Positions 26,704-44,888 of a stretch of 64,000 nt of DNA are shown one piece after another (positions within the stretch are counted from its first letter, which is position 1; every line of letters starts with the position of its first letter). The notes beneath the pieces were generated by a model. It was not told where the DNA came from, searched no databases, and saw only the letters and a program-made list of their open reading frames with translations. The translations under genes were made by a program, and so were the position numbers. This DNA comes from Candidatus Babeliales bacterium. Lineage in GTDB: Bacteria; Babelota; Babeliae; Babelales; RVW-14. The stretch spans positions 6,917-70,916 of the forward strand of contig JAIERW010000001.1 in assembly GCA_019746485.1 (NCBI GenBank), in the 5' to 3' direction.

Positions 26704-26730
26704 TCTGATTGTTTTTAAAAAGCAGAAAAA

Positions 26731-26759
26731 AGCCGGAGCAGAAAGCTCCGGCTTTTTTC
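26731..26759 (+). terminator. Rho-independent terminator after NTT paralog 2
   Basis: Perfect 9-bp GC-rich stem: agccggagc (26731..26739) pairs with gctccggct (26745..26753), followed by TTTTTT. Confidence 0.7.
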
Positions 26760-26838
26760 TTGTTATCTTTAGTTTAATGTGCGTAATGCGCTAAACTAAA
26801 GATAGTACGTGAAGATTATTCAAAAAAAAGGAGACTTA

Positions 26839-28134: not shown

Positions 28135-28206
28135 TTGTTGCTTTGGCAGCAATTTTATGAAATTATGAAATAAGTAATTCATCAATTTACAAAAGTACGG
28201 AATATC

Positions 28207-28527
28207 ATGAGAAACCAAAAGATTATCGATGAGGCGCGCGACCGCTTAATCAAAGCATACGACCCACTAGCAATTTATTTATTTGGTTCGTATGCCTGGG
28301 GCACGCCAACTGAAGATAGTGATCTGGACTTGCTGATTGTTGTCGAGAAGTCTGATGAAAAATCGTTCAAACGCCCCATTATTGGCCAACGAGCACTCTT
28401 TGGGCTGGGAGTTTCCAAGGACCTTATTGTCCAAACCAAAGAAGAATTTGAAAAATACTCACAAGATATAACGACACTTTGCTATAAAATAAAAAAAGAT
28501 GGCGAGTTAATTTATGCAAAGTCATGA
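28207..28527 (+). CDS. Nucleotidyltransferase-domain protein (MNT-type antitoxin)
   Basis: Minimal NTase signature LFGSYAWGTPTEDSDLDLLIVV. The 106-aa product overlaps the downstream HEPN gene by 14 nt. Confidence 0.85.
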   Translation: MRNQKIIDEARDRLIKAYDPLAIYLFGSYAWGTPTEDSDLDLLIVVEKSDEKSFKRPIIGQRALFGLGVSKDLIVQTKEEFEKYSQDITTLCYKIKKDGELIYAKS

Positions 28528-28891
28528 ATTATGGCTAAAAATAGCCACAGAAGATCTAAAGGCTGCCTACGGGTTACTTGATCTTGAGCTTTACTCTGCA
28601 GTAACTTATCATTGCCAACAGTCGGCTGAAAAAGCACTAAAAGCTTATCTCGCATTCAAAAAAAACCCTATCATCAAATCACATGACCTTCCGCAACTAA
28701 TTGAATATTGCATGAAATTCGATAAAACATTTGAAACAATTCTTGATGCAGCCGATATCTTGAATCCATTATCCACAAGATTTCGATACCCTTCAGAATT
28801 TGAAGTTCCAGATTTTGAAGACGCATACGAAGTAATCAAACTTGCTGAAAGTGTTTTAACATTTGCTTCCAAAAAAATAACTGTGAAATAA
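28514..28891 (+). CDS. HEPN-domain protein (toxin partner of MNT)
   Basis: HEPN pattern AEKALKAYL..KSHDLPQLIEYC and a distal RFRYP. Length 125 aa. Confidence 0.85.
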   Translation: MQSHELWLKIATEDLKAAYGLLDLELYSAVTYHCQQSAEKALKAYLAFKKNPIIKSHDLPQLIEYCMKFDKTFETILDAADILNPLSTRFRYPSEFEVPDFEDAYEVIKLAESVLTFASKKITVK

Positions 28892-28966
28892 CAAAAAACT
28901 TTTGGTTTTGATTACCCATTTTTTTTGCTATCCTGACCCGCATCAATCACCCTTTTTTTCAGGATA

Positions 28967-31423
28967 ATGTTGGTCACAATGGATTACAAAAAACAGTTTA
29001 ATCATTTCATAAGCAAAGAGCTCAATAAACCACAGCAAGAAGCGGCAACGCAAAAGTCTGGTGCACTGCTGGTTATTGCCGGCGCAGGCTCAGGCAAAAC
29101 GCGCGTTATTACCGCTCGCATTGCCAATTTAATTATTAACGAGAATGTAAGCCCAAAGGCCATTACCGCGCTCACATTTACCAACAAAGCTGCCGAAGAA
29201 ATGAAAGAGCGCTTACACAAATTTTTAGACGGCAACCACCAACTTCCCTTTGTTGGCACGTTCCACTCGTACTGCCTGCTGCTCTTGCGCACCAACCTGC
29301 ATTATCTTCCAGCACCGTACTTTTCAATTCTTGATGGTGACGACCAACTCAGCATCGTAAAACAAATTATAAAAAAAGGTGCTCTTGAAAAGCAGATTAC
29401 GCCCTCGCAAATTATGTACCAGCTGTCGCAATATAAAAATAAGTATTTCATGAATCCACAAGAGGCTGAAAACACAGTCAGTCCGCTCATAAAAGAAATT
29501 TATCATGCGTACGAAGCTGAAAAAACAGCCGCTCACAGCTTTGATTTTGACGATTTGATTTTGCAAGTCTTAAAACTATTTAGAACCAACAAAACTTTTA
29601 AGCGCGATTTTCAGGCAAAAATTAAGCACGTACTGGTTGACGAATATCAAGACACCAGCCATACGCAGCACGAGCTGCTGCGGCAAATGGGGCTTGATGA
29701 TGACAAAAAATTTATTCTAGATTCACTGTGCGCCGTGGGCGATGAAGACCAATCAATTTATTCCTGGCGCGGAGCAACGGTGACCAACATGCTTAAAATT
29801 AAGCAGGAGTTTGCGCCAGTAACCACCGTTAAAATTGAACAGAACTACCGCTCCGTCACACCTATTTTAGAAACTGCTAATCATGTGATTCAGCACAACA
29901 CGCAGCGCAACCCTAAAAAATTGTGGTCTGAAAAGCAGGGCAAAAATAGAATTTTATTACTAACCTGCCGCTCGGGCGAGCAAGAGGCAGACGCCGTTGC
30001 GATTTTATTAAAAAATTTACCAGAAAACAAAAAACTGAGTAACGTGGCACTATTGTACCGCACGCACTATCAATCGCGCTCGTTGGAAGAATCGTTAATT
30101 TACCACGCTATCCCCTACCGCATTATTGGCGGTATCCGTTTTTATGAGCGCAAAGAAATTAAAGACGTTTTGGCATACCTGCGCTTGATGGTCAACCCGT
30201 TCGACCGCATCAGCCTGCTGCGCATTGTTAACTATCCGCTACGCGGGCTGGGGCAAAAGTTTGAAGAACAGCTGATGGAAGCCTGGCAGCAAAACCCACT
30301 ACTCGACTTTCAGCAACTGATTACTCATTTAATTTCAAGCGAAGGCGTTAGCTCAGCAAAACAGCTGGCACTCAAACAATTTTTGGCAATTTATACAACC
30401 GCACCTAAAAACGGCTCGCCTTCAGATTTGATAGATCATGTGCTGACCAAAATTGATTATCTTAATTATTTGCGCACCACGCTGGACGCACAAGAGGCTG
30501 ATACTAAAATTGAAAACGTACGCGAATTGGTGCAATCAATTGCTACGTTTGAAAAGAATTTTAGCGGCTCACACGAATCACTTAACCCCAACGACCCGTT
30601 TGCCAGCAACTCAAACGCACCAACGCTAGAAAACTTTTTGTACGAAGTTACGCTGATGCAAGAAAAAAGTGACAACGAAAATCGCGATGACCAAGTCTGT
30701 TTAATGACGCTGCACGGATCTAAAGGCCTTGAGTTTGATATGGTTATTATTACCGGCCTTGAAGAAGAAATGCTGCCGAGCGGCAAAGCGCTCAACACCA
30801 ACGAAGAGCTTGAAGAAGAGCGACGCCTGTTTTATGTGGGCATTACGCGGGCAGAAGAACGCTTGGTACTCACACACGCTGATTACCGCAACCGCTTTGG
30901 CACCATTGTACACCAAATTCCATCACGCTTTTTGTCTGAGCTTAAGCGCCCGCTGGTTCAAGAGTTTAACGCGAGCAATGCTCATGCAACGCAACTTAAA
31001 ACGCAGTTTAGACGCTGGCTTGGGCTTTCTACCCAGTTTGACCAAAATATTCTAACATTTACCAACTTTATCCCACCCGACCGGCTGAGCACAAAAAATC
31101 AAACAGCGACTACTACGGCTCACGAAAATCGTAGGACCTCTATGCGTAAAACGGCAGCCGTGCACAAAGCACCAGCTTCGTACAAATCCGCATACAACTC
31201 CGTTCGCCCTGAGGAGCCGCGCGCAAGCGGGCGTCTCGAAGGGTCAGCACACAAAGCAGCTCCAACCAGCGAGTGGTACAAAAACCAGCTGGTTGAGCAC
31301 AGTAAGTTTGGCAAAGGGATTGTAACGCATGTTGAAAAGGCCGATGGCGACGCCTATCACATTACCGCCATTTTTCAATCTGGACCTAAAAAGATTCTTT
31401 CCAGCTTCTTGAAGAAGGGCTAA
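28967..31423 (+). CDS. uvrD: UvrD/PcrA-family ATP-dependent DNA helicase
   Basis: Motif I AGAGSGKT, motif II VDEYQDTS, QNYRS, VGITRAEERL, and a C-terminal FGKGIV Tudor-like tail. The start could be ATG 28967 or 28979. Confidence 0.9.
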   Translation: MLVTMDYKKQFNHFISKELNKPQQEAATQKSGALLVIAGAGSGKTRVITARIANLIINENVSPKAITALTFTNKAAEEMKERLHKFLDGNHQLPFVGTFHSYCLLLLRTNLHYLPAPYFSILDGDDQLSIVKQIIKKGALEKQITPSQIMYQLSQYKNKYFMNPQEAENTVSPLIKEIYHAYEAEKTAAHSFDFDDLILQVLKLFRTNKTFKRDFQAKIKHVLVDEYQDTSHTQHELLRQMGLDDDKKFILDSLCAVGDEDQSIYSWRGATVTNMLKIKQEFAPVTTVKIEQNYRSVTPILETANHVIQHNTQRNPKKLWSEKQGKNRILLLTCRSGEQEADAVAILLKNLPENKKLSNVALLYRTHYQSRSLEESLIYHAIPYRIIGGIRFYERKEIKDVLAYLRLMVNPFDRISLLRIVNYPLRGLGQKFEEQLMEAWQQNPLLDFQQLITHLISSEGVSSAKQLALKQFLAIYTTAPKNGSPSDLIDHVLTKIDYLNYLRTTLDAQEADTKIENVRELVQSIATFEKNFSGSHESLNPNDPFASNSNAPTLENFLYEVTLMQEKSDNENRDDQVCLMTLHGSKGLEFDMVIITGLEEEMLPSGKALNTNEELEEERRLFYVGITRAEERLVLTHADYRNRFGTIVHQIPSRFLSELKRPLVQEFNASNAHATQLKTQFRRWLGLSTQFDQNILTFTNFIPPDRLSTKNQTATTTAHENRRTSMRKTAAVHKAPASYKSAYNSVRPEEPRASGRLEGSAHKAAPTSEWYKNQLVEHSKFGKGIVTHVEKADGDAYHITAIFQSGPKKILSSFLKKG

Positions 31424-31530
31424 AAAAATCCCATTTGAAACGAATAAAAGCCTTTGCAAACCAGCCAAAAGTACCTTACCATTAACTTATTGGGAAAACT
31501 TTTAGGGAACCACTTTTTGGGGGAATTTTT

Positions 31531-32259
31531 ATGAACCGTACGTTTATTATGTCGCTTGCGGCAATGACATTGTTTAGCTTTTCTCTGGCAGCACACGAAA
31601 GCAGAAAAACCATACGCTCCTTCGATGCAAGCTGGAAGCTTATATTCGAAGAAGCCCTTAAAAAGCATGCTTCCTCCTGGAAACTTGTAAAAGCAATACG
31701 AGCACATGATAATAAACAACTATCCCAGCTTCTTAAAAATCCAACCATCAACGTAAATCCAATCGTCATGAAGGGAAGTGAAGGTTTCGAAACACAATTG
31801 CACCCACTCAATGAAGCAATTTCCTGCAACAATATTGAAGCAGTTAAACTCTTGCTTGCCCACACCGTCACGCTTGGTACAACAAAAAAAGACGCTGATG
31901 GCAATTTGATGAGCCATTATTTCGATGTCAAAGACATCGATGTTAATGCCCCTGGCTATAACGGCCTTACGCCACTGCACACTGCAGTTGGGTATGAAGC
32001 AGTTGACTGCATAAAGCTTTTGCTTGCACACAAAGACATTAAACTGATTGATCAAGACCTTATCGACTTGGTACAACAAGAACTTGATCTGAGAAATAAA
32101 GAAGCTAAACGAGCTCTTGAAATTTGGATGCTCTTGTCTGAACATGGGCAAATTTTAGATGGCCCTGGCGGCATGGGTCCCAACTACGATTGGCAAGGAA
32201 TTTTAATTGGCCCCGACACACTACCGCATTGTCCTTGCTGCACCACAACCATTGCGTAA
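31531..32259 (+). CDS. Secreted ankyrin-repeat protein with Cys-rich C-terminus
   Basis: Signal peptide MNRTFIMSLAAMTLFSFSLAA. ANK motifs FETQLHPLNEAISCNNIEAVKLLLAH and GLTPLHTAVGYEAVDCIKLLLAHKDI. It ends in HCPCCTTTIA. Confidence 0.85.
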   Translation: MNRTFIMSLAAMTLFSFSLAAHESRKTIRSFDASWKLIFEEALKKHASSWKLVKAIRAHDNKQLSQLLKNPTINVNPIVMKGSEGFETQLHPLNEAISCNNIEAVKLLLAHTVTLGTTKKDADGNLMSHYFDVKDIDVNAPGYNGLTPLHTAVGYEAVDCIKLLLAHKDIKLIDQDLIDLVQQELDLRNKEAKRALEIWMLLSEHGQILDGPGGMGPNYDWQGILIGPDTLPHCPCCTTTIA

Positions 32260-32281
32260 ATAACTTGGCTACAAAAAGTTT

Positions 32282-32314
32282 GAGGGGCACGAAAAATCGT
32301 GCCTCTCTTTTTTT
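32282..32314. terminator. Bidirectional terminator between convergent ANK genes
   Basis: Stem gaggggcacga / tcgtgcctctc (7 perfect bp, extendable with G-U pairs), loop aaaa, then a T-run at 32308..32314. Confidence 0.6.
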
Positions 32315-32320
32315 AACTAA

Positions 32321-35080
32321 TTACAACCCCGCCAACTCACTTGCCAACGTTACCAATTTTGCTTTGAGTGCTTCAAGCGCTTGCGATAAGTTTTGCAACG
32401 AGATAAAGCCCGCAAGCTGCTCAGGTGTTCCTTGAAAATCAATAGTACCACTAGGATTTTGTAGTTTTGCTACCGCGTTTTTATCTGCACCTTTTGTAAT
32501 CAGCAATTGAGCAAACCCAGATTTAGCTATCATTGCCAAATGAAGCGGTGTCAGATCTCCTTGCGCTTTTGCATTTACATCGGCACCTTTACTCAACAAT
32601 AAATTGACAATAGCTACATGCTCAGAATTCTTTGGATCAAAATCATAGATAGCATAATGAAGAGGAGTTGCTTGCTGGTCCGCATCTTGTACAGCCAAGG
32701 CAACCGCAGCATTTTTTGACGCATCAAGCAAAACCTGCCACACAGCAAGGCTCAGATTTGGATTTTTTACAGCTTTATGAAAAGCATTTTTATTACTTGG
32801 CGGATATCCAGAAGAAGAAATGGTATCAATCTGGTCCACATCAGCACCAGCATCAATAAAAGCTTTAATTTCTTGCTCAGTTGGCGTTAAATAAGCAAGC
32901 GCATGGTGCAACTGTTGTGATGGCGATAAACCAAAACCTGGTGAAAACGATAAAAGCGGAGCACCATGAAATAGAGCTGCTTGTGATTTCAGTAAATCAA
33001 CAATATCCTGTTTTCCATTAATAAAAGCTAAATCTTCAGGAGTTTGACAAGCGAGATTAACCGCTTTAACATCAGATCCTGCCTTCAACAACGCTTCAAC
33101 TTTTTCTTTCGTTCCAAAACCTGCTGCAACATGAAGCGGGGTAAGCATATCTTTATCAACGGCACCAATACTCGCACCACGATCCAGCAAGAGCTGCACA
33201 ATTTCAAGATCAACATTACCCGCACACGCATAATGAAGCGGCGTGCGGTTAAACACATCTGCAAAATTACTATCAGCACCATCATCAAGAAGTTTTTCTA
33301 TTGCTGCTTTTGTTGGAGAGGCTCCAGAATTGGCCAACACACGCAATAATTCTTTTGATGCAGGCATTGTAAGTACAGAAATAACATCGAGACGATTCAT
33401 ATTTTTAGCTATTACCAGAGGAGTTTCTCCTGCACCATTTTGTAAGCCAGCATCCGCACCCGCCTCTAACAAGCGACCAACTATGTCTCCATGCCCCCAC
33501 CACGCAGCAGAATGCAGTGGCGCATTTCCCGTTGTATCTTTAAAATTTACATTCGCACCAAAAGCAATAAGTCGCTCAATAAAAATTTTGTGTGGCGGGT
33601 CCTGTTTAACAAACTCACACAACTTTGCTCCCAATGCATCACAATCATTTTTATTTAAGCTTGCATCAAAAACCTCAACCTCTTCAAATAAAGCGTTAAT
33701 TTTTTGATGTTCTTCAGACTTTGCTTGAAGTTGATTGGCATCAAGCAAAGTCGACATATTTTTTCCCCAATCTGCAGCCGCTGCCTCAGCAAATTGTTTG
33801 GGGGTGCCGCTTACCAGAACGGCAGAAGTACTGGCACCCGAGATCATATCTTGTTCATACAAGGTGCCCACCAACGAGATATCCGCACCGTACAAAAGCA
33901 AAGAAGATATCAATTGCCCATTTAGACGTACAGCTGCTTTATGAAGTAGCGTAAGTCCGTCACCATCTTGCAAATTAATGTTAGCTCCAAATTTAAGCAA
34001 CGCGTTAACAAATTCAAAAGCACCTCGCTCTAACACCAAAAAAAGAGGTGTCTCGTCTTCATTATTTTTCATTTCAAGCAGATCTTTGTCTTTAGTAAGC
34101 AACCTATTAACCTTTTCGATGGAGCCATATGATACTGCCAGATGCAATGGCGTCATACCAAATTGATCCTTTACCTTAAGATTTGCTCCAGGAGCATCAA
34201 GCAACAGTTGCAGCATTGCAGGAGTAACATTATTTCTTACTGCTGCGTAATGAAAAACCGTAACGCCAGTATTGGTAAAATGCACATTCACATCAGCACC
34301 AGCAGCAAGAAAACCTTTTATTTGATCATACGTTGGCGGATTATTATCTGCATCTTCGAGCGCAAACAACAATCCTTCTGAAGCATTTTTTGGCACTCGC
34401 GCAAGTGCCGGTGCACCTGAGCCCGGCATTGGCCCAGATGGAGCTCCAGGCGCCAATCCAGCACCCGCGGCGGATCCTGAACCTGAGCCCGAACCAGACA
34501 AAACTCCCGCTCCTGATTTTGCCAAAGACTGCGCCAAAAGCCCTTTTATTTTTTCATATCTTGGATAAAGCTTTGGAATAGCTTTCTTCATCGCATCTTC
34601 GCCACCATAACCTGCAGCTCTATCTTCCACAATTTCCAGCGGGGTTTTCAAAACAACGGTACCACCAGAAGCCACCTGAGCTTGTGCGGCAACGTCAGCT
34701 CCTTTTTTCAACAACCAATCTACAAAAACTGGATTAAGACCTTCGGCTGCTTCATGAAGCGGTGTCTTACCGTATTTGTCCGGTACGTTAACATTGGCTT
34801 CTGCGTTCAAAAGCAAGCGAACTATCTCTTGATTATAAAAATCAGTATCCATACGCGGAACGGCACAAAGAAGCGCCGTGCGACCGAGACTAGAATCTTG
34901 CCAATTTAAGTTAATGCCGTGAGTTTCAACCAGGGCTTTTATTTTATCAACCGGTTCTTCGCCAGTCACTGCATTTACCAACTCTTTTCCCAACTCATCA
35001 GGCGTTTTTGCCGCCCCAAAAGCGGTACCCTGCGCACCCAGCGCCAACACAATCACCAACCACAATTTTACTATCTTCAT
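32321..35080 (-). CDS. Giant secreted ankyrin-repeat protein (919 aa), cassette-family member A
   Basis: ATG 35080 with GGGAG six nt upstream; the track starts at GTG 35083. Signal peptide MKIVKLWLVIVLALGAQGTAFGAAKTPDELGKEL. It has more than 15 ANK units and a Gly/Ser/Ala/Pro linker. The C-terminus LSQALEALKAKLVTLASELAGL is related to the tails of the two genes on its higher-coordinate side. Confidence 0.9.
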   Translation of the reverse strand: MKIVKLWLVIVLALGAQGTAFGAAKTPDELGKELVNAVTGEEPVDKIKALVETHGINLNWQDSSLGRTALLCAVPRMDTDFYNQEIVRLLLNAEANVNVPDKYGKTPLHEAAEGLNPVFVDWLLKKGADVAAQAQVASGGTVVLKTPLEIVEDRAAGYGGEDAMKKAIPKLYPRYEKIKGLLAQSLAKSGAGVLSGSGSGSGSAAGAGLAPGAPSGPMPGSGAPALARVPKNASEGLLFALEDADNNPPTYDQIKGFLAAGADVNVHFTNTGVTVFHYAAVRNNVTPAMLQLLLDAPGANLKVKDQFGMTPLHLAVSYGSIEKVNRLLTKDKDLLEMKNNEDETPLFLVLERGAFEFVNALLKFGANINLQDGDGLTLLHKAAVRLNGQLISSLLLYGADISLVGTLYEQDMISGASTSAVLVSGTPKQFAEAAAADWGKNMSTLLDANQLQAKSEEHQKINALFEEVEVFDASLNKNDCDALGAKLCEFVKQDPPHKIFIERLIAFGANVNFKDTTGNAPLHSAAWWGHGDIVGRLLEAGADAGLQNGAGETPLVIAKNMNRLDVISVLTMPASKELLRVLANSGASPTKAAIEKLLDDGADSNFADVFNRTPLHYACAGNVDLEIVQLLLDRGASIGAVDKDMLTPLHVAAGFGTKEKVEALLKAGSDVKAVNLACQTPEDLAFINGKQDIVDLLKSQAALFHGAPLLSFSPGFGLSPSQQLHHALAYLTPTEQEIKAFIDAGADVDQIDTISSSGYPPSNKNAFHKAVKNPNLSLAVWQVLLDASKNAAVALAVQDADQQATPLHYAIYDFDPKNSEHVAIVNLLLSKGADVNAKAQGDLTPLHLAMIAKSGFAQLLITKGADKNAVAKLQNPSGTIDFQGTPEQLAGFISLQNLSQALEALKAKLVTLASELAGL

Positions 35081-35161
35081 CACGCACTCCCTCTTTTTGA
35101 TTTTTCAACGTCAACATAAACCAACATATCTACCAGAGTGGCACAATCAGGAACCAAAAGG

Positions 35162-35191
35162 GAAGAAGAAGAAGAAGAAGAAGAAGAAGAA
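35162..35191. repeat. (GAA)10 / (TTC)10 microsatellite upstream of gene 32321..35080
   Basis: Ten perfect GAA units counted directly. The tract starts 81 nt upstream of the ATG. Confidence 0.95.
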
Positions 35192-35235
35192 GCCTCTCGG
35201 TACGCCCAAGGGGCACTCGAGATGAGCGGGAAAAA

Positions 35236-35285
35236 GGGCTTTCAAGCATTAACAACTCGAAAGCCCTTCTAAAATTTAGTTAAGC
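35236..35285 (-). terminator. Terminator block copy 1 (50-nt repeat, identical to 35960..36009)
   Basis: gggctttc (35236..35243) pairs with gaaagccc (35259..35266) around a 15-nt loop. On the minus strand the hairpin is followed by TTTTT. The block sits immediately 3' of gene 35291..35869. Confidence 0.7.
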
Positions 35286-35290
35286 GTTTT

Positions 35291-35869
35291 TTATGGCACT
35301 AGTACTTGCAGCACACCCGCCAACATTGCCAACTTTGCTTTAAGTGCATTCAAAGTTTTTTTTAATTTTTTAAGCGATGTACGGATAACTATTGGCATTG
35401 AAGGACCACCCACAGAAGCGTGTTTGTTTAATAAATCGCGAACACTTTTGAATTGAGAGGTTGCTTTCTCACTTTCCCATTTTGCATCTGCATCAAGACC
35501 ATCAAACTCTTGGTATGAAAGATCGGGAATACCTCCTTTTCCAGCTTCTAATAATGCCTTCTGCACATCTTCCCCAAAACTTAGCGCCATGGAAAAAGCA
35601 AGCGGCGTACAATTTTTATACTCAACAAATCCAAAGCGGCATGTATATTTTTTGAACAAACTTTCTGCTGGTACTGTTGCAAGAAAAGCAAGAAACACAG
35701 GCATTCCTTTATCACCAGTCATAGTTACATAATCAGGATTGCTCCTGAGCTCAGCAAGTTTTTTACACAACTCTTTCCCCAACTCATCAGGCGTTTTTGC
35801 CGCACCAAAAACCATGCCCTGCGCACCCAGCATCAGCACAACAGCCAACCACAATTTTGCAATCTTCAT
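35291..35869 (-). CDS. Secreted protein, cassette-family member B (N-module of A, C-module of C)
   Basis: MKIAKLWLAVVLMLGAQGMVFGAAKTPDELGKEL shares the signal peptide and first motif with the 919-aa gene. One degenerate ANK-like unit (CTPLAFSMALSFGEDVQKALLEAG). C-terminus LKKLKKTLNALKAKLAMLAGVLQVLVP. Confidence 0.8.
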   Translation of the reverse strand: MKIAKLWLAVVLMLGAQGMVFGAAKTPDELGKELCKKLAELRSNPDYVTMTGDKGMPVFLAFLATVPAESLFKKYTCRFGFVEYKNCTPLAFSMALSFGEDVQKALLEAGKGGIPDLSYQEFDGLDADAKWESEKATSQFKSVRDLLNKHASVGGPSMPIVIRTSLKKLKKTLNALKAKLAMLAGVLQVLVP

Positions 35870-35944
35870 CACACACTCCCTCTTTTTTATTTTTCAACAC
35901 AAGCACACATGCCAGCAAGGCTAGCAAACTGAAAACCAAAAAGA

Positions 35945-35959
35945 GAAGAAGAAGAAGAA
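35945..35959. repeat. (GAA)5 / (TTC)5 microsatellite upstream of gene 35291..35869
   Basis: Five perfect GAA units. The tract starts 75 nt upstream of the ATG and abuts terminator copy 2. Confidence 0.9.
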
Positions 35960-36009
35960 GGGCTTTCAAGCATTAACAACTCGAAAGCCCTTCTAAAATT
36001 TAGTTAAGC
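35960..36009 (-). terminator. Terminator block copy 2 (identical 50-nt repeat)
   Basis: Same sequence as copy 1: gggctttcaagcattaacaactcgaaagcccttctaaaatttagttaagc. On the minus strand it is followed by the T-rich (TTC)5 tract. Confidence 0.65.
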
Positions 36010-36014
36010 AATTT

Positions 36015-36587
36015 TTACGGCACTAGTGCTTGCAGCGCACCAGCCAATGTTGCCAATTTTGCTTTAAGTGCATTCAAAGATTTTTTTAACTGCTTGAGTG
36101 ATTTTTTTGATTCAGCAATTTTGTCTTTTATTAACTGTACAAACGCATTTGCCCAATCGAGTTCATCTTTCCATTTTTTAATATCTTCCGGATCAGGATT
36201 AATACGAAATGGAATACTATCTACGGTTTCTTGTTCTTTAATGCGGTAAATTTCAGCCAACTCAAACAGCGTAAGCACAACAGTCTTATCTCCAGACTCT
36301 ATTCTAACATTAGGATCTGCACCATTCTTCAGCTGAGTTTCCATTGCTTTCCAATCTATAGAATATTTCATAGTATATGAGATAGTTAAGTTCTCTGCAG
36401 AAGTTTTTGAAAAGCTCTTATTTTTTAGACCAACCAGAATCTGAACAGCTTTACCAAAATTAAACTCATGAATTTTCTCACAAATCTTTTTCAATTCTGC
36501 TGTCGCCGCAGGATTATAAGGTTTGGCAACGGTGACAAATAAACAAGAAATAATGAAACTGCCAAAAAATATTTTCTTAATCTTCAT
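36015..36587 (-). CDS. Secreted protein, cassette-family member C
   Basis: Signal peptide MKIKKIFFGSFIISCLFVTVA. C-terminus LKQLKKSLNALKAKLATLAGALQALVP is nearly identical to that of member B. It has an ANK-like NGADPNVRIESGDKTVVLTLFELAEIY segment. Confidence 0.8.
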   Translation of the reverse strand: MKIKKIFFGSFIISCLFVTVAKPYNPAATAELKKICEKIHEFNFGKAVQILVGLKNKSFSKTSAENLTISYTMKYSIDWKAMETQLKNGADPNVRIESGDKTVVLTLFELAEIYRIKEQETVDSIPFRINPDPEDIKKWKDELDWANAFVQLIKDKIAESKKSLKQLKKSLNALKAKLATLAGALQALVP

Positions 36588-36656
36588 ACTTCCTCACTTC
36601 ACAAAAAAATTGGTTTAACTCCTCTTGCCAATAAGATTAACAATCTAGAACACCAA

Positions 36657-36689
36657 GAAGAAGAAGAAGAAGAAGAAGAAGAAGAAGAA
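36657..36689. repeat. (GAA)11 / (TTC)11 microsatellite upstream of gene 36015..36587
   Basis: Eleven perfect GAA units. The tract starts 69 nt upstream of the ATG, in the divergent intergenic region. Confidence 0.95.
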
Positions 36690-36761
36690 AGGCCTTTAAC
36701 CACGTTTTTTACGCCACTACACCCAGCTTTTACCAACTCCTAACCCACTTTTCTAAATTAT

Positions 36762-36790
36762 TTACAAGCTGAACAGACGCGAGCTATACT
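36762..36790 (+). promoter_or_regulatory. Candidate promoter of the ANK-RING gene
   Basis: TTACAA (36762..36767), a 17-nt spacer, then TATACT (36785..36790). It lies about 43 nt upstream of the ATG. Confidence 0.45.
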
Positions 36791-36832
36791 CATAACAAGA
36801 TAGATAATTATTGAATCGCGAAAGGTTTCTCA

Positions 36833-38374
36833 ATGAAAAAGAGCACTTTTTTTGCATTTTTATTCATTTTTGTTTTAAGCAAGAGCCTGAACAGCGCTCC
36901 AGCAGACCAGCCAACCCTGACTGTTCCTGCCAGCATGTGGTACGCTGCCATGGGCTCAACCAACTCATTGGCTCAGCTACCGCCGGCAGCGTTGGTAGAA
37001 CCAGACGACAGCGGCCAAACACCGCTGCACATTGCTGCCCAGAACGGGCACCCCAACACTATTCTGTTTTTATTGCAACAAGGAACGCCGGTAAACGTGG
37101 CAGACAAACAAGGCATAACACCGTTGCACCTTGCCGCTCAGTATGGCCAAAAGCCGTGCGTACAAACGCTGCTCAACCAAAAAGCAGCTATCAACAGTGC
37201 TGGTACCACGGGCATAACGCCGCTGCATTTGGCAGCCTTTTACGGCCAACCTGATATAGTAAAATTGCTTCTTGAGTACAAAGAATGTAACATTGAAGCG
37301 GGTACCAAAGGCAAATCTACCCCACTCCATTTTGCTGCTCAAAGCGGGCAGACTGCCTGCCTAGAAGCGTTGCTAGCAAAAAATGCCAAAGTTGACGTAC
37401 GAAATGCGCTCGGAGAAACGCCGCTCTTGCAAGCAATCAAAAATAACCAGCTGGCCAGCTCACAGCTGTTGCTTAACAAAAATGCCAACCCCAACGTTAA
37501 AGAAAATAGTTCTGGCGCAACAGCACTGCACTTTGCTGCTTTAAATAATTTTAACGAAGGAATCACCGCGCTCTTAAAAGAAGGCGCTACGGTAAACATT
37601 AAAGACAAAAACGGCATGAGCCCGCTACACTATACCGCCGGCAACAATAATCTGAACGGCACCAAACAACTTTTAGAAAGAGGCGCCAGTGTTAACACTG
37701 CAAACAATAATAAAACCACGCCTTTGCACGCAGTGGCAACAAACAACGCACTGGACTGTCTCCCGCTCTTGTTGGCAAAAAATGCCGATGTTAACGCAGT
37801 AGATACTAACAAATCAACCCCGCTGCATTTGGCTGCCACCAACGGCCACGATCTAAGCGTACGCTTGCTGCTCAGTAGCAAAGGAACTAAAGCACTTGGC
37901 ATTGACGCTGTTGATACTGCTGGCGCAACGCCACTGCACCGCGCAGCTCAAAACGGCCATGTGACTGTTTGTTTTATGTTAATCATGAGTGGCGCAAACT
38001 TATTAATGCCAACAACCAATGCTGCCTCTGCCGATGCTAACAAAACGACTCAGGCGCTGGCTGCGCAAAACGGGCACTATGCGCTGGCAAATGCACTGCA
38101 GTACGCGCAAACCAACGGCCAGCTGCCAAGCGTTGCTGCCGCAGGAAGCGCGTGCACTCTTTGTGCTCAACAATTTAATGTTGCAGAAGTTGGCATACAG
38201 CTTCCGTGCGGGCACATTATGCACCCAAACTGCTTGCAAACATTTATTGCTCAACCTGCCCAACTTGCCTACCAATGCCCAACCTGCCAGGCAGCGGCAC
38301 AGGCACAAGGACAAGCGATAGCGGTTTTAATGGTTGCAGCAAACCCAACGAATGAAGCGGTAGGAAAAAAATAA
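36833..38374 (+). CDS. Secreted ankyrin-repeat protein with C-terminal RING-H2 zinc finger (putative E3 ubiquitin ligase effector)
   Basis: Signal peptide MKKSTFFAFLFIFVLSKSLNSA. About 10 consecutive canonical ANK units (G.TPLH.AA..G......LL..). Residues 441..485 read CTLC-x14-CGH-x2-H-x2-C-x14-CPTC, which is C-x2-C-x14-C-x-H-x2-H-x2-C-x14-C-x2-C. Confidence 0.85.
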   Translation: MKKSTFFAFLFIFVLSKSLNSAPADQPTLTVPASMWYAAMGSTNSLAQLPPAALVEPDDSGQTPLHIAAQNGHPNTILFLLQQGTPVNVADKQGITPLHLAAQYGQKPCVQTLLNQKAAINSAGTTGITPLHLAAFYGQPDIVKLLLEYKECNIEAGTKGKSTPLHFAAQSGQTACLEALLAKNAKVDVRNALGETPLLQAIKNNQLASSQLLLNKNANPNVKENSSGATALHFAALNNFNEGITALLKEGATVNIKDKNGMSPLHYTAGNNNLNGTKQLLERGASVNTANNNKTTPLHAVATNNALDCLPLLLAKNADVNAVDTNKSTPLHLAATNGHDLSVRLLLSSKGTKALGIDAVDTAGATPLHRAAQNGHVTVCFMLIMSGANLLMPTTNAASADANKTTQALAAQNGHYALANALQYAQTNGQLPSVAAAGSACTLCAQQFNVAEVGIQLPCGHIMHPNCLQTFIAQPAQLAYQCPTCQAAAQAQGQAIAVLMVAANPTNEAVGKK

Positions 38375-38386
38375 GAAGCAAAAAAC

Positions 38387-39577
38387 TCACGAACCATAAA
38401 TCTCGCTCAACAACGCTTCAACCGAGTTCCAACAAAACCCGCGCCCCTCTTTGCGCTGAAGATTTTCGTTACCGCCGTAAACAACATAAAGCGGCAATGT
38501 TTCTTGCTCAGTAATTTCTCGCCACGCAAAAAGCTCTCTAAAAAAGTTGTCTGAAAAAGTCATGCCCGCTTTAATTTCAACCGGCACAACGTGGTTGTAC
38601 GATTTTTCAATTACCACATCAATCTCATGGCCTTGAACGTCGCGCCAGAAATAAATCTGCGGCGTTTTATTGTGATTGTAATTGTGCTTAAACATTTCAC
38701 TAATCACAAACGATTCAAACAACGCACCCTTGAGCGGATGCGTATGCAACTCTTCTGCTGTTCTAATCCCCAACAACGAACAAACCAACGCTGTATCGTT
38801 AAAATATATTTTTGGGCTTTTAATCACGCGCTTGTTAAAATTTTTGTAGTACGGCGGCAACAACTTGATAATGTAGCTAGCTTGTAAAATAGCAATCCAC
38901 GACTTGGCAGTGTTCAAACTTATGCCCGCATCGCGCGCAATGTCGGCATAGTTAAGTAAGTTGCCAATGCGCGCAGCACACAACTTTAAAAAGCCCTGAA
39001 ACGCAATAACGTCAGAAATGTTCAGCACTTGGCGCACATCTTTTTCAACATACGTACTGATATAGTTTGAGCACCATGTTTGCACAGAAATTGGCTGAGA
39101 ATAAAGCCGTGGATAACAACCTTTAATAAACAGCGAAGCAAAATCTTCAGGCAGCATATTGGCACCGCGCAGTTCTTGAACCGAAAGTGGCAACAGCGTA
39201 AGCAAGGCAATACGGCCTGCCAACGTCTGGGTTATTTTTTCATACATTAAAAAATGCTGCGAACCGGTAATAATAAAATAACCGGGCCGATACGCTTGGT
39301 CTACAATCCCTTGCATGTACGAAAGCAACTCCGGCACTTCTTGAATTTCATCAATAATCAAGCCACTGTGCTGGGCATAGGTAGCAAAAAAGCCCCGCGG
39401 GTCTTGCTGTGCGGCACTCCGCTTGTCTAGATCTTCTAACGTAACGTAGGCATAGCCGGCAAAGGTCTCTTTGACCAGGGTTGTCTTGCCAGACTGCCGA
39501 GGACCCATAACTGCCACCACGGGAAACTGTGTGGCTAATTCTTGTAAATGAGCGGTAATAGTACGCTTAATAATCAT
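38387..39577 (-). CDS. AAA_14 / DUF4143-type ATPase
   Basis: The N-terminal pattern ..VVAVMGPRQSGKTTLVKE.. (Walker A), LIIDEIQ (Walker B) and a length of about 400 aa are typical of the AAA_14 plus DUF4143 family as I remember it. Confidence 0.65.
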   Translation of the reverse strand: MIIKRTITAHLQELATQFPVVAVMGPRQSGKTTLVKETFAGYAYVTLEDLDKRSAAQQDPRGFFATYAQHSGLIIDEIQEVPELLSYMQGIVDQAYRPGYFIITGSQHFLMYEKITQTLAGRIALLTLLPLSVQELRGANMLPEDFASLFIKGCYPRLYSQPISVQTWCSNYISTYVEKDVRQVLNISDVIAFQGFLKLCAARIGNLLNYADIARDAGISLNTAKSWIAILQASYIIKLLPPYYKNFNKRVIKSPKIYFNDTALVCSLLGIRTAEELHTHPLKGALFESFVISEMFKHNYNHNKTPQIYFWRDVQGHEIDVVIEKSYNHVVPVEIKAGMTFSDNFFRELFAWREITEQETLPLYVVYGGNENLQRKEGRGFCWNSVEALLSEIYGS

Positions 39578-39734
39578 CTTTTTGCCCCTTTTTTAGACTT
39601 TTTATAAAACTCGTACAATCTGCAATCCTATTGCATATTTTACACAATTTGCCTAAAACATCAAACAGATCGTTATTTTCGAGCAGGCCAAGTTTTTAAA
39701 ACCAGGGCCTTTCAGGCCCTTAACCGAGCCTATT

Positions 39735-39763
39735 TTGACAAAATAACGCCCCACCAGTATGCT
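39735..39763 (+). promoter_or_regulatory. Candidate promoter of the HExxH protein gene
   Basis: Consensus TTGACA (39735..39740), a 17-nt spacer, then TATGCT (39758..39763). Confidence 0.45.
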
Positions 39764-39823
39764 GGTTGCACTGAAAAACATTACAGAAATAGGCATAGTT
39801 AAAACTATTGGGTTGTGAGCACT

Positions 39824-40873
39824 ATGAAATTTAACACCGCATTGCGTTCTCTTTCTCTAGCACTTGTGTGCGCACTAAGCACTTCTTTTTATGCACACGC
39901 CGCCGCTCCGGCAACTGACTCAGCTCCGGTGGTTTCTGACGATGAAAAAATGGTGCCAGTTGGGCCGATACTCAAAGGCCTTGTTGCGCTCACCTTCCTG
40001 CAAATTTACTACCTTACCGCCCCAAAGCACACACAAAAGCGGCTAGAAGAACAGTTTATGCCCAAAAGCCTGGCACTCAACTTTGCCGGCGAATATTCTT
40101 CATATTTCTTGATGACATTAATTCACGAATTTGGCCATGCAGCAGTTGCCAACTATATCAACAATGACCCAATCAACATTCATATCGGCAACAATAGTGC
40201 CGAGAAATCTGACGAACCACTTTTTGCAACCGATCATTTTACACTCGATGGCTTAAGCCCACTTGAAGGGCTGACCGTTTATCGCCTTTCAACCCAAATG
40301 AGCGATAAGCTTTTATTTGTTGAATACTTGCAAGATTGCTTAAAAAATAACGAGTCACTCGAAACTATTTCTGCTGAAAAATTTAGCACGTTCAAAGAAG
40401 CTTTTGTTAACTCGCCGGCATACCAAGAATTGTTGCAAAAACTTGAAAATAACAAATCAAAAGAGAATCTCATTTTAGCTGCTGGCGGCATTGCAGCACT
40501 TTCTGCCAACACACTCTTTAAACTCATGCGCTCAATGGCAAAAAGTTATCAAGAAAATGCTGAAGCGCTTGATGCCATTAAAGCATCGCTTGGCGCTGCT
40601 TTTTCTATCGACAAAATTGTGCTGAACCAAGTTTTGAGTGCATTCTTGCCCAGCAGCAAAAACAGCGATGGCGCTAAACTATGGCGCAACATTACCGGCA
40701 TACCAGAAGACGCGCTTGAAGTTTGCTACACAGCGGCACCGTACGTTGACATGCTTGGCGAGTGCTACCTTGCGTACAAAGACCCACGGGCAGAAGGCTC
40801 AAAAACCCCTGACAAACTTATGATTGGTTTGATTAACTATTTACTGCGCGGTTATTTACGCTTTCACGCTTAA
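39824..40873 (+). CDS. Exported or membrane-associated putative zinc metalloprotease (HExxH)
   Basis: Signal peptide MKFNTALRSLSLALVCALSTSFYAHAAA. A hydrophobic segment carries LIHEFGHAAV (HExxH). The rest is helical with no further motifs recognised. Confidence 0.45.
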   Translation: MKFNTALRSLSLALVCALSTSFYAHAAAPATDSAPVVSDDEKMVPVGPILKGLVALTFLQIYYLTAPKHTQKRLEEQFMPKSLALNFAGEYSSYFLMTLIHEFGHAAVANYINNDPINIHIGNNSAEKSDEPLFATDHFTLDGLSPLEGLTVYRLSTQMSDKLLFVEYLQDCLKNNESLETISAEKFSTFKEAFVNSPAYQELLQKLENNKSKENLILAAGGIAALSANTLFKLMRSMAKSYQENAEALDAIKASLGAAFSIDKIVLNQVLSAFLPSSKNSDGAKLWRNITGIPEDALEVCYTAAPYVDMLGECYLAYKDPRAEGSKTPDKLMIGLINYLLRGYLRFHA

Positions 40874-42099
40874 CGCTTACGTTTCGTTGCCGCCAAATAC
40901 AGCAGCCAGCTTGAAAAGATCATAAACCCCGCAACGCCCACCGGCAACGCAGGGTTGAGCATGGCCAAAAAGCCACCAAAAAAAGTTCCCAAAACAGTAA
41001 CTAGCGCCTGCATTGCCCAGATCATGGCAATCCCTTTGCCCTGCTTGTCATCATCAACTGAGTTGGAAATTATAGCCATCATGTTGGGCAAAATTGACGC
41101 AATACAGCCAATGTAAAAAACAATAAAAATATATAAACCAATCGTTGTGGGCGGCATAAAAACTGCCAAGCTTAAAAAAGCAAGCAGTGGCAGTGCAGAC
41201 AAAACGATAGTGCGTGGCGCTGCAACGCGCGAAAGTGGACGAACTAGAAAAAGCTGCAATAACAAATACATAACGCCAGCGTACACAAACATACTACCAA
41301 TTTTGTCAGCACCATAATTGAAAACTTTGAGCAAATACGTTGAAAAAAATTGGGTACTAAACGTCCAACCAAAAATAAACAAACTAGCTGCGGCAAAAAT
41401 GCTGCGCAATTTTGGATAATGAAACATCTGCCCAAGATGGCCAAACGTTATAAAAAACTTCTTTCTTTTAACCGGTTTTTTTGGACGATCACGAAATAAC
41501 TGGTAAGCAACAAAAAGCAAATTAAGCACCGTTAAGCCGCCCAAAATTAAGAACGGTATTGCTAAATTATGAGCAACACCAAGCAAAGCATTGGTATATT
41601 GACCGCCCAACAAACCACCACCAATAAAGCCGCAGGCAACTGCAATTTCTACTATACTCATGTTACTCACTTTGTCGGCATTGGTATCATCACTCACGTC
41701 GGCCATAAATGATTGCGCAATAGCAACGTTTGCAGCAAAAAGACCAGCGCAAAAACGGCTGGCAAAAAGCAACCAAACGTTAGCATAATGAATAGCCAAT
41801 GCGGTTAGAAACAAGCTTACTGCTGCACCAGAAAGCGTTATGATCATGGTAAAGCGCCGACCGTACGAATCTGAAATTTGCCCCCAAAGCGGCGACATAA
41901 AAAACTGCCCGGCATAGTAGGCCGTGAGCACAAAACCCACAAAGAGCGTACCGTAAGCGTGCGTGGTTTGTTCTGACAAAAGTTTATACTGAGAGTCTGC
42001 TAATAAAACAGGAAAAACCACCAGTGATACCACAATATTAAGATAATCGAGAAATGCGGCCGACAAAAATGGCGCATACTGCATTATTTTACGATTCAT
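40870..42099 (-). CDS. MFS transporter
   Basis: MFS motif A GQISDSYGRR and about 12 hydrophobic segments. Start set at ATG 42099; the track ORF uses an upstream TTG. Confidence 0.8.
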   Translation of the reverse strand: MNRKIMQYAPFLSAAFLDYLNIVVSLVVFPVLLADSQYKLLSEQTTHAYGTLFVGFVLTAYYAGQFFMSPLWGQISDSYGRRFTMIITLSGAAVSLFLTALAIHYANVWLLFASRFCAGLFAANVAIAQSFMADVSDDTNADKVSNMSIVEIAVACGFIGGGLLGGQYTNALLGVAHNLAIPFLILGGLTVLNLLFVAYQLFRDRPKKPVKRKKFFITFGHLGQMFHYPKLRSIFAAASLFIFGWTFSTQFFSTYLLKVFNYGADKIGSMFVYAGVMYLLLQLFLVRPLSRVAAPRTIVLSALPLLAFLSLAVFMPPTTIGLYIFIVFYIGCIASILPNMMAIISNSVDDDKQGKGIAMIWAMQALVTVLGTFFGGFLAMLNPALPVGVAGFMIFSSWLLYLAATKRKR

Positions 42100-42194
42100 G
42101 AAAGCCCCCCTGAAAACCCCTAAAAATATTCCCTTCCTTTCACGCCATAACGGCACAAAAGGAAGGGCCTGTTCGAACAAATTATGAACGTTTG

Positions 42195-42914
42195 TTATAA
42201 GCGCTCAATATTATTTTTGGTGAAATATTTTGTTTCGTTTTTGGCAAACGGCATTGCATCGTTAAATTCTTTAAGATATTTGTTGGTGCGCTTGAGCGTT
42301 TGCTCATCAATTTTAACCGGAGAATCCCAATCTCCAACTTTAAAGGTCAATGGGATAGCAAGCTTAATGCCTCGATAATTTAAATGACCATTAACCGCAA
42401 GCATTTTTTTCATTGATGTTTTTGGCGTAATAGTAAAATCTTTACCAACCACCAAGCCATTAGGCAACTTAACACCATGACCAGGAACAACAAAGTAACC
42501 TTCCTGGGTTTTAATTACCTCAAAGAAACGACCGCTAATACTTGGATTGCGGCTTGCATAAGGCCCGCGCCATTTTTTTGGATACGCCAGATTAAGTCCA
42601 CCAATAATTGAACCTTCAAAACTTTTGGTCGTCAAAAAGTCAACAATCGCATGATCACCGTGAATACTCACAATATTGCAACGTTGGTCGATATCGTGCA
42701 ATATCGATTCAATGTTTTTAAGATTGCCGGTAATCACTGAAGAAACGAAATACGGCTGGTTATAGTACAATTTGCCTAAAAAAGTAAGTAACAAAATTGC
42801 CAAAATTGCCGTACTAAAATAAATGAAATAAGACCTAAAGAATCTAAAAAATGGTCCCATTTTTCGATCAACTCGACGATCGATTGTATCCATAAAATCA
42901 TCAAGCTTTTTCAT
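42195..42914 (-). CDS. Hypothetical membrane-anchored protein
   Basis: ATG 42914 with AAGGAG six nt upstream. One N-terminal TM (FIYFSTAILAILLLTFLG) precedes a soluble domain with no recognised motif. Confidence 0.5.
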   Translation of the reverse strand: MKKLDDFMDTIDRRVDRKMGPFFRFFRSYFIYFSTAILAILLLTFLGKLYYNQPYFVSSVITGNLKNIESILHDIDQRCNIVSIHGDHAIVDFLTTKSFEGSIIGGLNLAYPKKWRGPYASRNPSISGRFFEVIKTQEGYFVVPGHGVKLPNGLVVGKDFTITPKTSMKKMLAVNGHLNYRGIKLAIPLTFKVGDWDSPVKIDEQTLKRTNKYLKEFNDAMPFAKNETKYFTKNNIERL

Positions 42915-43007
42915 AACACACTCCTTTTTGAGCATTTTTTTGCACTCCCTTAACCTTCCCCAGTGGTTTATTGTATAAAAAAATGCTGGCAAAAATAAAT
43001 ATATTGC

Positions 43008-44888
43008 TTAAATGACCTGTGTTGTTTCGGGTTGCAGATGATCGGCCTTAAGAATTGTATATCCTCCTTTTTGGGTATCCCACACCACAAAAACTGTATT
43101 TTTTGTTAGCCACTTTTTGTCAAAGACAAAGGAAATATCAGTAATAAAACGACCGTCAATGCGCTGATTAATCATAAAAGAGCCCATTGAACATTGGTAC
43201 CACTCACCCTCCAGATATGGCTCACTCCGCCACTCATAACCAAAATCACGCGCATTCCACTGCAACGGATGGTTAGAAAACTGCATCCACCAGGCACAAT
43301 GTTGCGGATCGTCAGAAATTAAACGAAAGCCGCCAGGTATTGGCAACGCGCGGTACGAAACACCAACAATCTTATAATCACGATCACAACCAAAAACACC
43401 CTTTTCAGCCAAACTAGAAAAGAGCTCAAAGGCAACGTTAACACTCAGATCGTTTAAAAAATAGTGCACAATGCTTTGAATGTCTGAAACAAACGGCGAA
43501 CTAAAAAAAATATACTGAGCTTTGGGATCTAGCTTGTTATGTATAAAAAAGGGTTCGTAGCGCTTTTTAAGTTGATAGGTCTGCTGCCCGGCAACACGCA
43601 AATCGTGCATGTTCAGCAATGTGCCCCGCCCAATTGAAAACAACATAAAAAAACTTACCAACAATACGCCGTACTGCCCATACATAAACTTACGCGCATT
43701 AAGCAGCGGTATGCCAACTACCACCAGTGTTACCACCAGCGGGTAGGCCGTTTCTAAATAGCGAGCACAGGGGTAGGCCATAATACCCTGCCAGGCAAAA
43801 CACCAAAACCCAACGATAAAAAATAATAAGAGCTTTTTATGATTTTTATAAGCAAGCGCACAAAAGAGTATAACCAAGAGCCACAGCGTAATAATGAGCA
43901 AGTGCTTGGTATCATCAAGCATAAAAAGGCAGCTGCTCCATGAAAAAAATTTGGTAAAAAAATAATCTAATTTTTTTAAAAATGGTGCATACCATAAAGG
44001 TGCTATAACTGGCGGCGCTGGTGCTGCTCCAACAGTTACTGCTGCTGGTGTTGCCACAATCGGCGCCAAAACAGCAACTTTTTTTTGCACCAACGCGGCC
44101 AGAAAAGGGATCCTCAGTAAAAGATTGTTAAACGTTCGCTCAAGCGTGGCAATACCAAAGGCCCACAAGCGCCATGCAACGTAAACACCGTGCACTACAA
44201 AAAAAATCCACGTCTTACGCACAGCATAAAGAGCCGACTGCCACCAGTCGTGCTGCTCAAGAGCATACAAAAACATACCAAAAAATAACCAGAACGGAAA
44301 AAAGATGCCATTTTCACGCGCCAGTAAAGAAAGTAAAAAACTGATTCCTGAAAAAAAGTAGTACCACCAACTGCCTCGCTGTTGCCAAAAGAAACAAAAT
44401 AATAGTGATGATAATAAAAGAAAAAATGTCGCAAGCGAATTATGAAAAGTTGCAAGCCACGCAAGCCACGAAATGTCGGGGTACAGCCCAAACATAAGCC
44501 CACCCAACAGCGAAAGCCACACTGAAAGCCATTGCGAAAAGAGATAAAATAACAAAACGGCATTAAGCGCATGAAAGATAACGTGTAAAAGATAATACGC
44601 TTTTGCTTCAAGCCCAAAAAGTGCGTAGACTGCGGTAAAAAAAAAATGCTTTAACGGCCGCAAAAAACCGGAAATAAAATTGGGCTTGGAGCGGCGATAA
44701 TTCATGGGCACTATAAACTCACGCTCATCAGCTTTTATAACGCGCAAGGCATCTTCTTTACAAAACACAAGCCCATTAATGATTTGGCCTAAATCATCTT
44801 CACGGTACCAAATTTTGTCAACAGGCAAGGCTCCAACAGAAAAAACGATAATAAAAATTGCCAACGCATACCAATGTTTTGTGTTCAT
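43008..44888 (-). CDS. GT-C fold membrane glycosyltransferase, TMTC/PMT_2-like (no TPR domain)
   Basis: Polytopic, 626 aa. The first-loop acidic motif YREDDLG and the FLRPL..F...VYALFGLEAKAYYLLHVIFHALNAVLLFYLF pattern resemble TMTC/DUF1736-type O-mannosyltransferases. Confidence 0.55.
   Translation of the reverse strand: MNTKHWYALAIFIIVFSVGALPVDKIWYREDDLGQIINGLVFCKEDALRVIKADEREFIVPMNYRRSKPNFISGFLRPLKHFFFTAVYALFGLEAKAYYLLHVIFHALNAVLLFYLFSQWLSVWLSLLGGLMFGLYPDISWLAWLATFHNSLATFFLLLSSLLFCFFWQQRGSWWYYFFSGISFLLSLLARENGIFFPFWLFFGMFLYALEQHDWWQSALYAVRKTWIFFVVHGVYVAWRLWAFGIATLERTFNNLLLRIPFLAALVQKKVAVLAPIVATPAAVTVGAAPAPPVIAPLWYAPFLKKLDYFFTKFFSWSSCLFMLDDTKHLLIITLWLLVILFCALAYKNHKKLLLFFIVGFWCFAWQGIMAYPCARYLETAYPLVVTLVVVGIPLLNARKFMYGQYGVLLVSFFMLFSIGRGTLLNMHDLRVAGQQTYQLKKRYEPFFIHNKLDPKAQYIFFSSPFVSDIQSIVHYFLNDLSVNVAFELFSSLAEKGVFGCDRDYKIVGVSYRALPIPGGFRLISDDPQHCAWWMQFSNHPLQWNARDFGYEWRSEPYLEGEWYQCSMGSFMINQRIDGRFITDISFVFDKKWLTKNTVFVVWDTQKGGYTILKADHLQPETTQVI

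Follow-up and report, generated by a model that had tools for sequence, protein, structure and literature searches.

Three tandem genes behind GAA·TTC tracts

The window analysed here, a stretch of 64,000 nucleotides (64 kb) from a Candidatus Babeliales bacterium, contains three tandem genes for putative exported proteins, called A, B and C below, each of which is preceded by a perfect trinucleotide tract, (GAA)10, (GAA)5 and (GAA)11, respectively (Table 1). All three genes are encoded on the minus strand, so that the sense-strand reading of each tract is (TTC)n. The spacing from tract to start codon is exactly 81 nt for gene A, 75 nt for gene B and 69 nt for gene C; all three tracts are in non-coding DNA, with in-frame stop codons between each tract and its ATG. 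Tract 3 lies inside a divergent intergenic region that gene C has in common with a gene for an ankyrin-RING protein. An earlier note on this DNA had described these perfect repeats and their place on the 5′, non-coding side of three paralogous cassette genes, and both parts of that description proved correct. The repeats also stand far above what shuffling produces: (GAA)4 has 17 overlapping matches in the window and none in 100 dinucleotide-preserving shuffles, and a full microsatellite census returned no other trinucleotide repeat of more than four units within the 64 kb. Within the window, GAA·TTC tracts are confined to these three tandem genes, each of which has one. The three tracts are real and well beyond chance expectation.

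Judging from the alignments, each tract heads a duplicated, since diverged 5′ module, in which the order is tract, a conserved box of ~33 nt, leader, Shine-Dalgarno site and the start of the gene, ATGAAGAT, with its signal peptide. Genes A and B share a 5′ block of 131 nt (88% identity) that spans the Shine-Dalgarno region and the first ~37 codons, and genes B and C share a 3′ block of 160 nt (87% identity) that takes in the final ~28 codons (…LNALKAKLAxLAGxLQxLVP) with the stop codon and extends over a 16-bp hairpin; with ends shared in this way, the genes are mosaics. The leaders of B and C are weakly similar (z = 3.2), mainly in the ~33-nt box directly after the tract, and any similarity between the leaders of A and C is not significant. 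While these flanks have diverged to ~70%, the tracts are still perfectly pure. The distal flanks are unrelated to one another, with a G+C-rich hairpin at tract 1, the gene C hairpin at tract 2 and the divergent intergenic region at tract 3. The earlier note had stressed the fixed position of the tracts; the distances themselves stand, but they probably reflect for the most part the descent of a duplicated 5′ module (z = 10 for A and B, 3.2 for B and C), which makes them a weaker sign of positional constraint.

Table 1. Tracts, genes, leaders and hairpins of the locus (positions are those of the window)
Feature	Position	Strand	Description
Tract 1	35162..35191	minus	(TTC)10 on the sense strand, (GAA)10 on the plus strand; head of the gene A 5′ module; alleles of 10, 9 and at least 10 units
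Tract 2	35945..35959	minus	(TTC)5 on the sense strand; head of the gene B 5′ module; 5 units in all data sets
Tract 3	36657..36689	minus	(TTC)11 on the sense strand; head of the gene C 5′ module; alleles of 11, 7 and at least 9 units
Gene A	32321..35080	minus	919 amino acids from the ATG at 35080; signal peptide, many ankyrin repeats
Gene B	35291..35869	minus	Orphan of 192 amino acids from the ATG at 35869; signal peptide; N-terminus as in gene A, C-terminal helix and 3′ untranslated region (UTR) as in gene C
Gene C	36015..36587	minus	Orphan of 190 amino acids from the ATG at 36587; signal peptide matching the lipobox pattern (IISC); C-terminal helix ...LNALKAKLATLAGALQALVP
Gene A leader	35081..35161	minus	81 nt; tract-proximal box at one end, Shine-Dalgarno site GAGGGAG at the other; within an RNA contig of run X7
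Gene B leader	35870..35944	minus	75 nt; homologous to the gene A leader (z = 10)
Gene C leader	36588..36656	minus	69 nt; first ~33 nt after the tract (TTGGTGTTCTAGATTGTTAATCTTATTGGCAAG) ~73% identical to the gene B block
Gene B 3′ hairpin	35234..35270	minus	16-bp stem, then U5, as in intrinsic terminators
Second hairpin	35192..35227	minus	G+C-rich; directly before tract 1
Gene C 3′ hairpin	35956..35992	minus	16-bp stem; tract 2 directly after it as pyrimidine tail

Tract length in near-identical genomes

Unit numbers were read from assembled contigs (Logan, 31-mer) and from a Tara Oceans scaffold, and the comparison is one between samples. The Tara Oceans metagenome scaffold L001, which encodes protein B, aligns with the window over 9,391 nt with one mismatch and two insertions or deletions (indels), and these two fall exactly in tracts 1 and 3: L001 has 9, 5 and 7 units in tracts 1, 2 and 3, against 10, 5 and 11 in the window. 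The Logan contigs of run X1 have 9 units in tract 1 and 7 in tract 3, as in L001, and a second Tara run, X6, has 9 units in tract 1. Seven units recur at tract 3 in the unrelated run X12 of 2023, on a contig that covers 36615-36893. Longer alleles come from drinking water: in run X41, window-identical contigs enter tract 1 by 29 nt from the left and by 28 nt from the right, which implies at least 10 units there, and in runs X2, X4 and X5 they enter tract 3 by 28-29 nt, which implies at least 9. Tract 2 is crossed unchanged at 5 units in X1-X4 and has the same length in every data set. At least two alleles are thus backed by independent data for each long tract, and one for the short tract.

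The two long tracts gain or lose whole units between near-identical genomes, and the five-unit tract is stable. This is hypermutability of the slippage type between samples: with a single base substitution in 9.4 kb beside two tract indels, mutation in the tracts is faster by orders of magnitude than at ordinary sites. It had been suggested in the earlier note, from the differing unit numbers of the paralogs (10, 5 and 11), that the tracts bear the signature of slipped-strand mutation. That difference among paralogs is now joined by one within the same tract between near-identical genomes, and the signature is seen most directly in the two genome copies that, beside their one substitution, differ only at the long tracts. 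Likewise, tract length in related genomes, to which the note had pointed as a check, comes out as 9 against 10 units for tract 1 and 7 against 11 for tract 3, with tract 2 constant.

Three other apparent signs of variation were rejected. Contigs that end inside the tracts might have been taken for heterogeneity within a sample; the k-mers that follow belong also to other GAA-bearing organisms, at much higher depth. Joints that skip the 1.46 kb between tracts 1 and 3 derive from foreign GAA-containing contigs, and an apparent break of homology beside tract 1 in drinking-water runs was disproved by X41.

How unusual is such an arrangement? The pattern (TTC)8-N50-80-GAGG-N3-10-ATGAA matched only 7 stretches in 185,579 species genomes, all of them single tracts and none labelled Dependentiae. 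The nearest relatives that could be reached, via the neighbouring AAA_14 ATPase (at most 81% identity; source labels Babeliales, Babeliaceae, TM6 and Dependentiae), are not syntenic and have no such tracts, and ~58 kb of related Babeliales contigs contain no trinucleotide repeat of five units or more. As far as this small sample shows, the trio is unusual and local, and does not reflect a compositional habit shared by the group. The same layout was seen, as an isolated case, in an unrelated phylum, in a metagenome-assembled genome of an uncultured Planctomycetales bacterium (L003, 3034-3149), where (TTC)16 stands ~60 nt before the GGAGG Shine-Dalgarno site of a gene for a signal-peptide protein (MKRLIVFSATGFLIVATIVLL...).

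The public data also hold information on strains and distribution. Five drinking-water runs (X2-X5 and X25) have window-identical contigs on both sides of positions 36690-37188 and nothing at least 90% alike over these 500 nt, which start exactly at the distal edge of tract 3, end at codon ~119 of the ankyrin-RING gene and are present in the Tara runs, X8 and X12. The gap looks like a strain-specific replacement bounded by tract 3. The drinking-water runs also contain a second strain, 6-9% divergent (37189-37332 and 38582-39000), of which no contig matches the region of the A 5′ end, B and C at 90% or more, so that the cassette array seems to be lineage-specific. Over 26000-44000, sequence of 100% identity occurs in Tara marine metagenomes (2014), drinking-water metagenomes (2021) and a lake metatranscriptome (2023), in runs labelled as several organisms; this recurrence points either to a cosmopolitan clonal Babeliales lineage or to contamination of many data sets by a bacterium that recurs in water systems or hosts.

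Leader RNA, hairpins and encoded proteins

Evidence on transcription comes from the lake-water metatranscriptome X7, in which at least eight contigs of this organism, 100% identical, are spread across 18 kb. In this region, two 3.7-Gb DNA runs from that sample contain nothing of the organism, so the signal in X7 represents RNA. One contig (35010-35189, depth 7.9) reaches from within gene A across all 81 nt of the leader and includes 28 nt of tract 1. Transcription of tract 1 is thereby indicated, whether in the 5′ UTR of gene A or through read-through out of gene B, the contig being strandless. True-RNA coverage was absent from tracts 2 and 3.

In the predicted RNA folds of all three leaders, (UUC)n pairs with the purine-rich region of the Shine-Dalgarno site and AUGAAGAU, with 12-19 pairs between tract and ribosome-binding site expected at the observed n. 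The predicted folds are better than those of shuffled sequences for gene B (z = -2.45) and gene C (z = -3.07). Two other roles for the tracts were considered and set aside. A poly-phenylalanine leader peptide, encoded by an upstream open reading frame as in an attenuator of the pheL type, is suggested by the fact that the tracts are in the TTC (phenylalanine) frame of the downstream ATG; there is, however, no credible start codon or ribosome-binding site upstream, and a stop codon follows within 4-7 codons. As a spacer between -35 and -10 hexamers, the tracts are too long at 30-33 nt, and the hexamers fit nowhere.

The sequences upstream of the tracts differ in their potential for structure. 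In a scan over 34900-36900, the gene C hairpin with tract 2 was the sole terminator-like site, and the first bases of the tract extend the hairpin stem. The gene B hairpin with its U5 lies ~40 nt before tract 1, and no significant structure precedes tract 3 (z = -0.34). Behind the gene B hairpin (35220-35235), AGATGAGCGGGAAAAA agrees at 11 of 17 positions with the (GAA)5 tract found after the equivalent hairpin in gene C, and the site, read as TTTTTCCCGCTCATCT, agrees with a TTC run at 11 of 16. This sequence may be a decayed copy of a tract, or a T-rich terminator tail from which the tracts grew.

Little can be said about proteins B and C from homology. Pfam searches at E values up to 10 gave nothing for B and coiled-coil noise only for C, no homologue other than the two themselves was found among 5.8 billion proteins, a JGI metagenome scan with protein B gave no match, and neither did a contig scan with the B/C alignment in a genome collection that excluded the window's own genome. 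As B and C are orphans, there are no orthologous loci to compare. AlphaFold2 models of both have a predicted local distance difference test score (pLDDT) of 45 and are confident for the C-terminal helix only. A, B and C share this amphipathic helix, SLKxLKKxLNALKAKLAxLAGxLQxLVP (32324-32400, 35294-35378 and 36018-36102, minus strand), which is more diverged in A and which in B and C runs on into a 3′ UTR and hairpin that are conserved as well; a C-terminal module for sorting or secretion is one possible role. The signal peptide of gene C, MKIKKIFFGSFIISC (36543-36587, minus strand), fits the lipobox [LVI][ASTVI][GAS]C, so that its product may be a lipoprotein.

A candidate contingency locus and its precedents

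What could such tracts do? By analogy with known systems, unit number may well tune or switch the gene downstream, which would make the trio a small contingency locus for host-interaction proteins. Three tandem genes for exported proteins on the same strand would each have a hypermutable (TTC)n·(GAA)n run at the head of the 5′ module; slippage would change the number of units, and with it the expression of the gene downstream would be tuned or switched. We can envisage three ways in which this might work. The one we prefer would have the tract within the transcribed leader, acting via RNA structure or processing as in Haemophilus influenzae hmw. Next in our preference, the tract would lie upstream of a non-canonical promoter and determine how an upstream factor is spaced or bound, as in Mycoplasma gallisepticum vlhA. 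In the third, the terminator of the upstream gene would have the tract as its pyrimidine tail, and the tract would set read-through into the next gene.

Several observations weigh against a regulatory role. The promoter scan found no sigma-70-like promoter between any tract and its ATG, and the geometry offers no obvious on/off switch, as steps of 3 bp keep the frame and the tract is not a -35/-10 spacer. The predicted accessibility of the ribosome-binding site stays at ~0.3 for n = 0-16; being insensitive to length, it gives no prediction of length-dependent control by simple occlusion. For gene A, the predicted fold is no better than that of shuffles (z = -0.33), and the RNA contig that reaches tract 1, being strandless, could represent read-through from gene B. 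The conserved position of the tracts would owe itself mostly to descent. Finally, the same alleles recur across samples (7 units in Tara 2014 and in the 2023 run), and alleles common to several samples mean that the mutation rate is not extreme.

That the tracts are neutral microsatellites, a TTC run copied with the 5′ and 3′ modules at gene duplication, perhaps seeded by the pyrimidine tail of a terminator, and left to drift by slippage without effect, seems to us somewhat unlikely but is a serious rival. The modules are clearly duplicated, tract 2 is the tail of the gene C hairpin and the equivalent site behind gene B resembles a TTC run; moreover, a length-dependent effect is not predicted in silico, and identical alleles return in samples years apart. 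Neutral drift is harder to square with the otherwise complete absence of long perfect simple sequence repeats (SSRs) from the window and from 58 kb of relatives, with their great rarity in this context in 185,579 genomes, and with the purity that all three tracts have kept despite the divergence of their flanks. All three, furthermore, precede genes for exported proteins at a similar distance, even gene C, whose leader can barely be aligned. A mainly terminating or insulating role, in which hairpin and (UUC)n end the transcript of the upstream gene and length only modulates read-through in a C-B-A operon, is quite improbable. It would draw on the 16-bp hairpin directly before tract 2, on the second, G+C-rich hairpin before tract 1 (an arguable case) and on the RNA contig that passes through leader A into tract 1, as read-through would give. 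Tract 3, however, is preceded by neither a hairpin nor a gene of that strand, a canonical hairpin with U5 already follows gene B ahead of tract 1, and in intrinsic terminators UUC runs make poorer tails than U runs.

We regard it as very doubtful that the tracts matter chiefly at the level of DNA, as structural or recombination hot spots (H-DNA, triplex) that stall polymerases or serve as breakpoints for the exchange of cassettes between strains. They are homopurine·homopyrimidine mirror repeats, of 30-33 bp in the long tracts, and so have by definition the sequence form of H-DNA; window-identical contigs of five drinking-water runs stop at tract 3, with 36690-37188 unmatched beyond it, and the genes are mosaics. 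On the other side, the break beside tract 1 is gone in X41, the contig ends in the tracts are explained by k-mers common to other GAA-bearing organisms, and the joints between tracts are foreign contigs. It is more improbable still that the length differences are artefacts of assembly or amplification. Repeats of 30 nt or more do break 31-mer graphs, and the Tara runs are small, but the alleles of 7 and 9 units, at 23 and 28 nt, stay below k and are spanned by unique 31-mers, the Tara reads gave the same result with two assemblers, and unrelated runs reproduce both 7 units (X12) and at least 10 (X41).

Within the reading as a contingency locus, a bolder version is tempting, albeit unlikely in our estimation: an independently evolved 'counted repeat' system like that of vlhA, in which each (TTC)n would be both the terminator tail of the upstream gene and a leader or promoter element of the next cassette, and slippage would pick which exported host-interaction protein, ankyrin-type or orphan, is made. 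Repeat-driven contingency loci are textbook knowledge for pathogens that face adaptive immunity, and Babeliales (Dependentiae) are obligate intracellular parasites of amoebae and other protists. A full-text literature search returned no work on phase variation in Dependentiae or Babeliales among its top matches. If true, a vlhA-like system would be the first contingency locus described in the phylum, and the first in a bacterium with unicellular eukaryotes as hosts. Any contingency locus in Babeliales would show that bet-hedging over secreted effectors pays against unicellular hosts too. With three tracts, three genes and alleles of 7, 9, 10 and 11 units, the locus is small and well delimited, and public data from marine, lake and drinking water contain it at 100% identity, which makes the idea directly testable.

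Finally, we would like to set the tandem tracts beside repeat systems of known function. The closest precedent, which the earlier note had not named, is the (GAA)n tracts of M. gallisepticum vlhA/pMGA (PMC6258824). In each member of tandem arrays, such a tract is found ~40 nt before the transcription start, on the far side of the -35 box; the tracts usually have 6-12 units, vary among strains and allow transcription only at 12 units (PMC6258824, PMC10932453). Both systems are built on a GAA·TTC duplex, with one tract in the 5′ non-coding region of each tandem gene for an exported or surface protein, a similar range of units (6-12 there, 5-11 here), variation among paralogs and strains, conserved sequence on the gene side of the tract and no canonical sigma-70 promoter. 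They differ in that vlhA has GAA on the sense strand, whereas here it is TTC; in the number of genes (~40 in vlhA, three here); and in the proteins, which are VlhA lipoprotein haemagglutinins there and an ankyrin protein with two orphans here. The distal flank, too, is not conserved here, and tract 1 is found in RNA, in contrast to the vlhA tract upstream of the -35 box.

This last difference brings the locus nearer to hmw1A/hmw2A of H. influenzae, where the 5′ UTR contains a transcribed (ATCTTTC)n that base-pairs with a G-rich arm and undergoes cleavage by RNase III, and where expression is, by experiment, inversely related to repeat length (PMC12721329). In both cases, a pyrimidine-rich SSR stands 5′ of an exported host-interaction protein (a putative one here), is transcribed in the leader (as shown for hmw and indicated for tract 1) and pairs, here by prediction, with a downstream purine-rich segment; such a repeat gives graded control rather than control by frame shift. 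The unit has 3 nt here and 7 nt in hmw, and the fold here is a prediction, with the accessibility of the ribosome-binding site constant over n, whereas the hmw hairpin is experimental. In Neisseria meningitidis nadA, (TAAA)n lies upstream of the promoter, and the NadR operators and an IHF site are defined (PMC2791445). Its unit is a tetranucleotide, unlike the trinucleotide here, but its principle, a repeat outside the core promoter whose length alters the spacing of distal elements, is one that the tracts described here could share.

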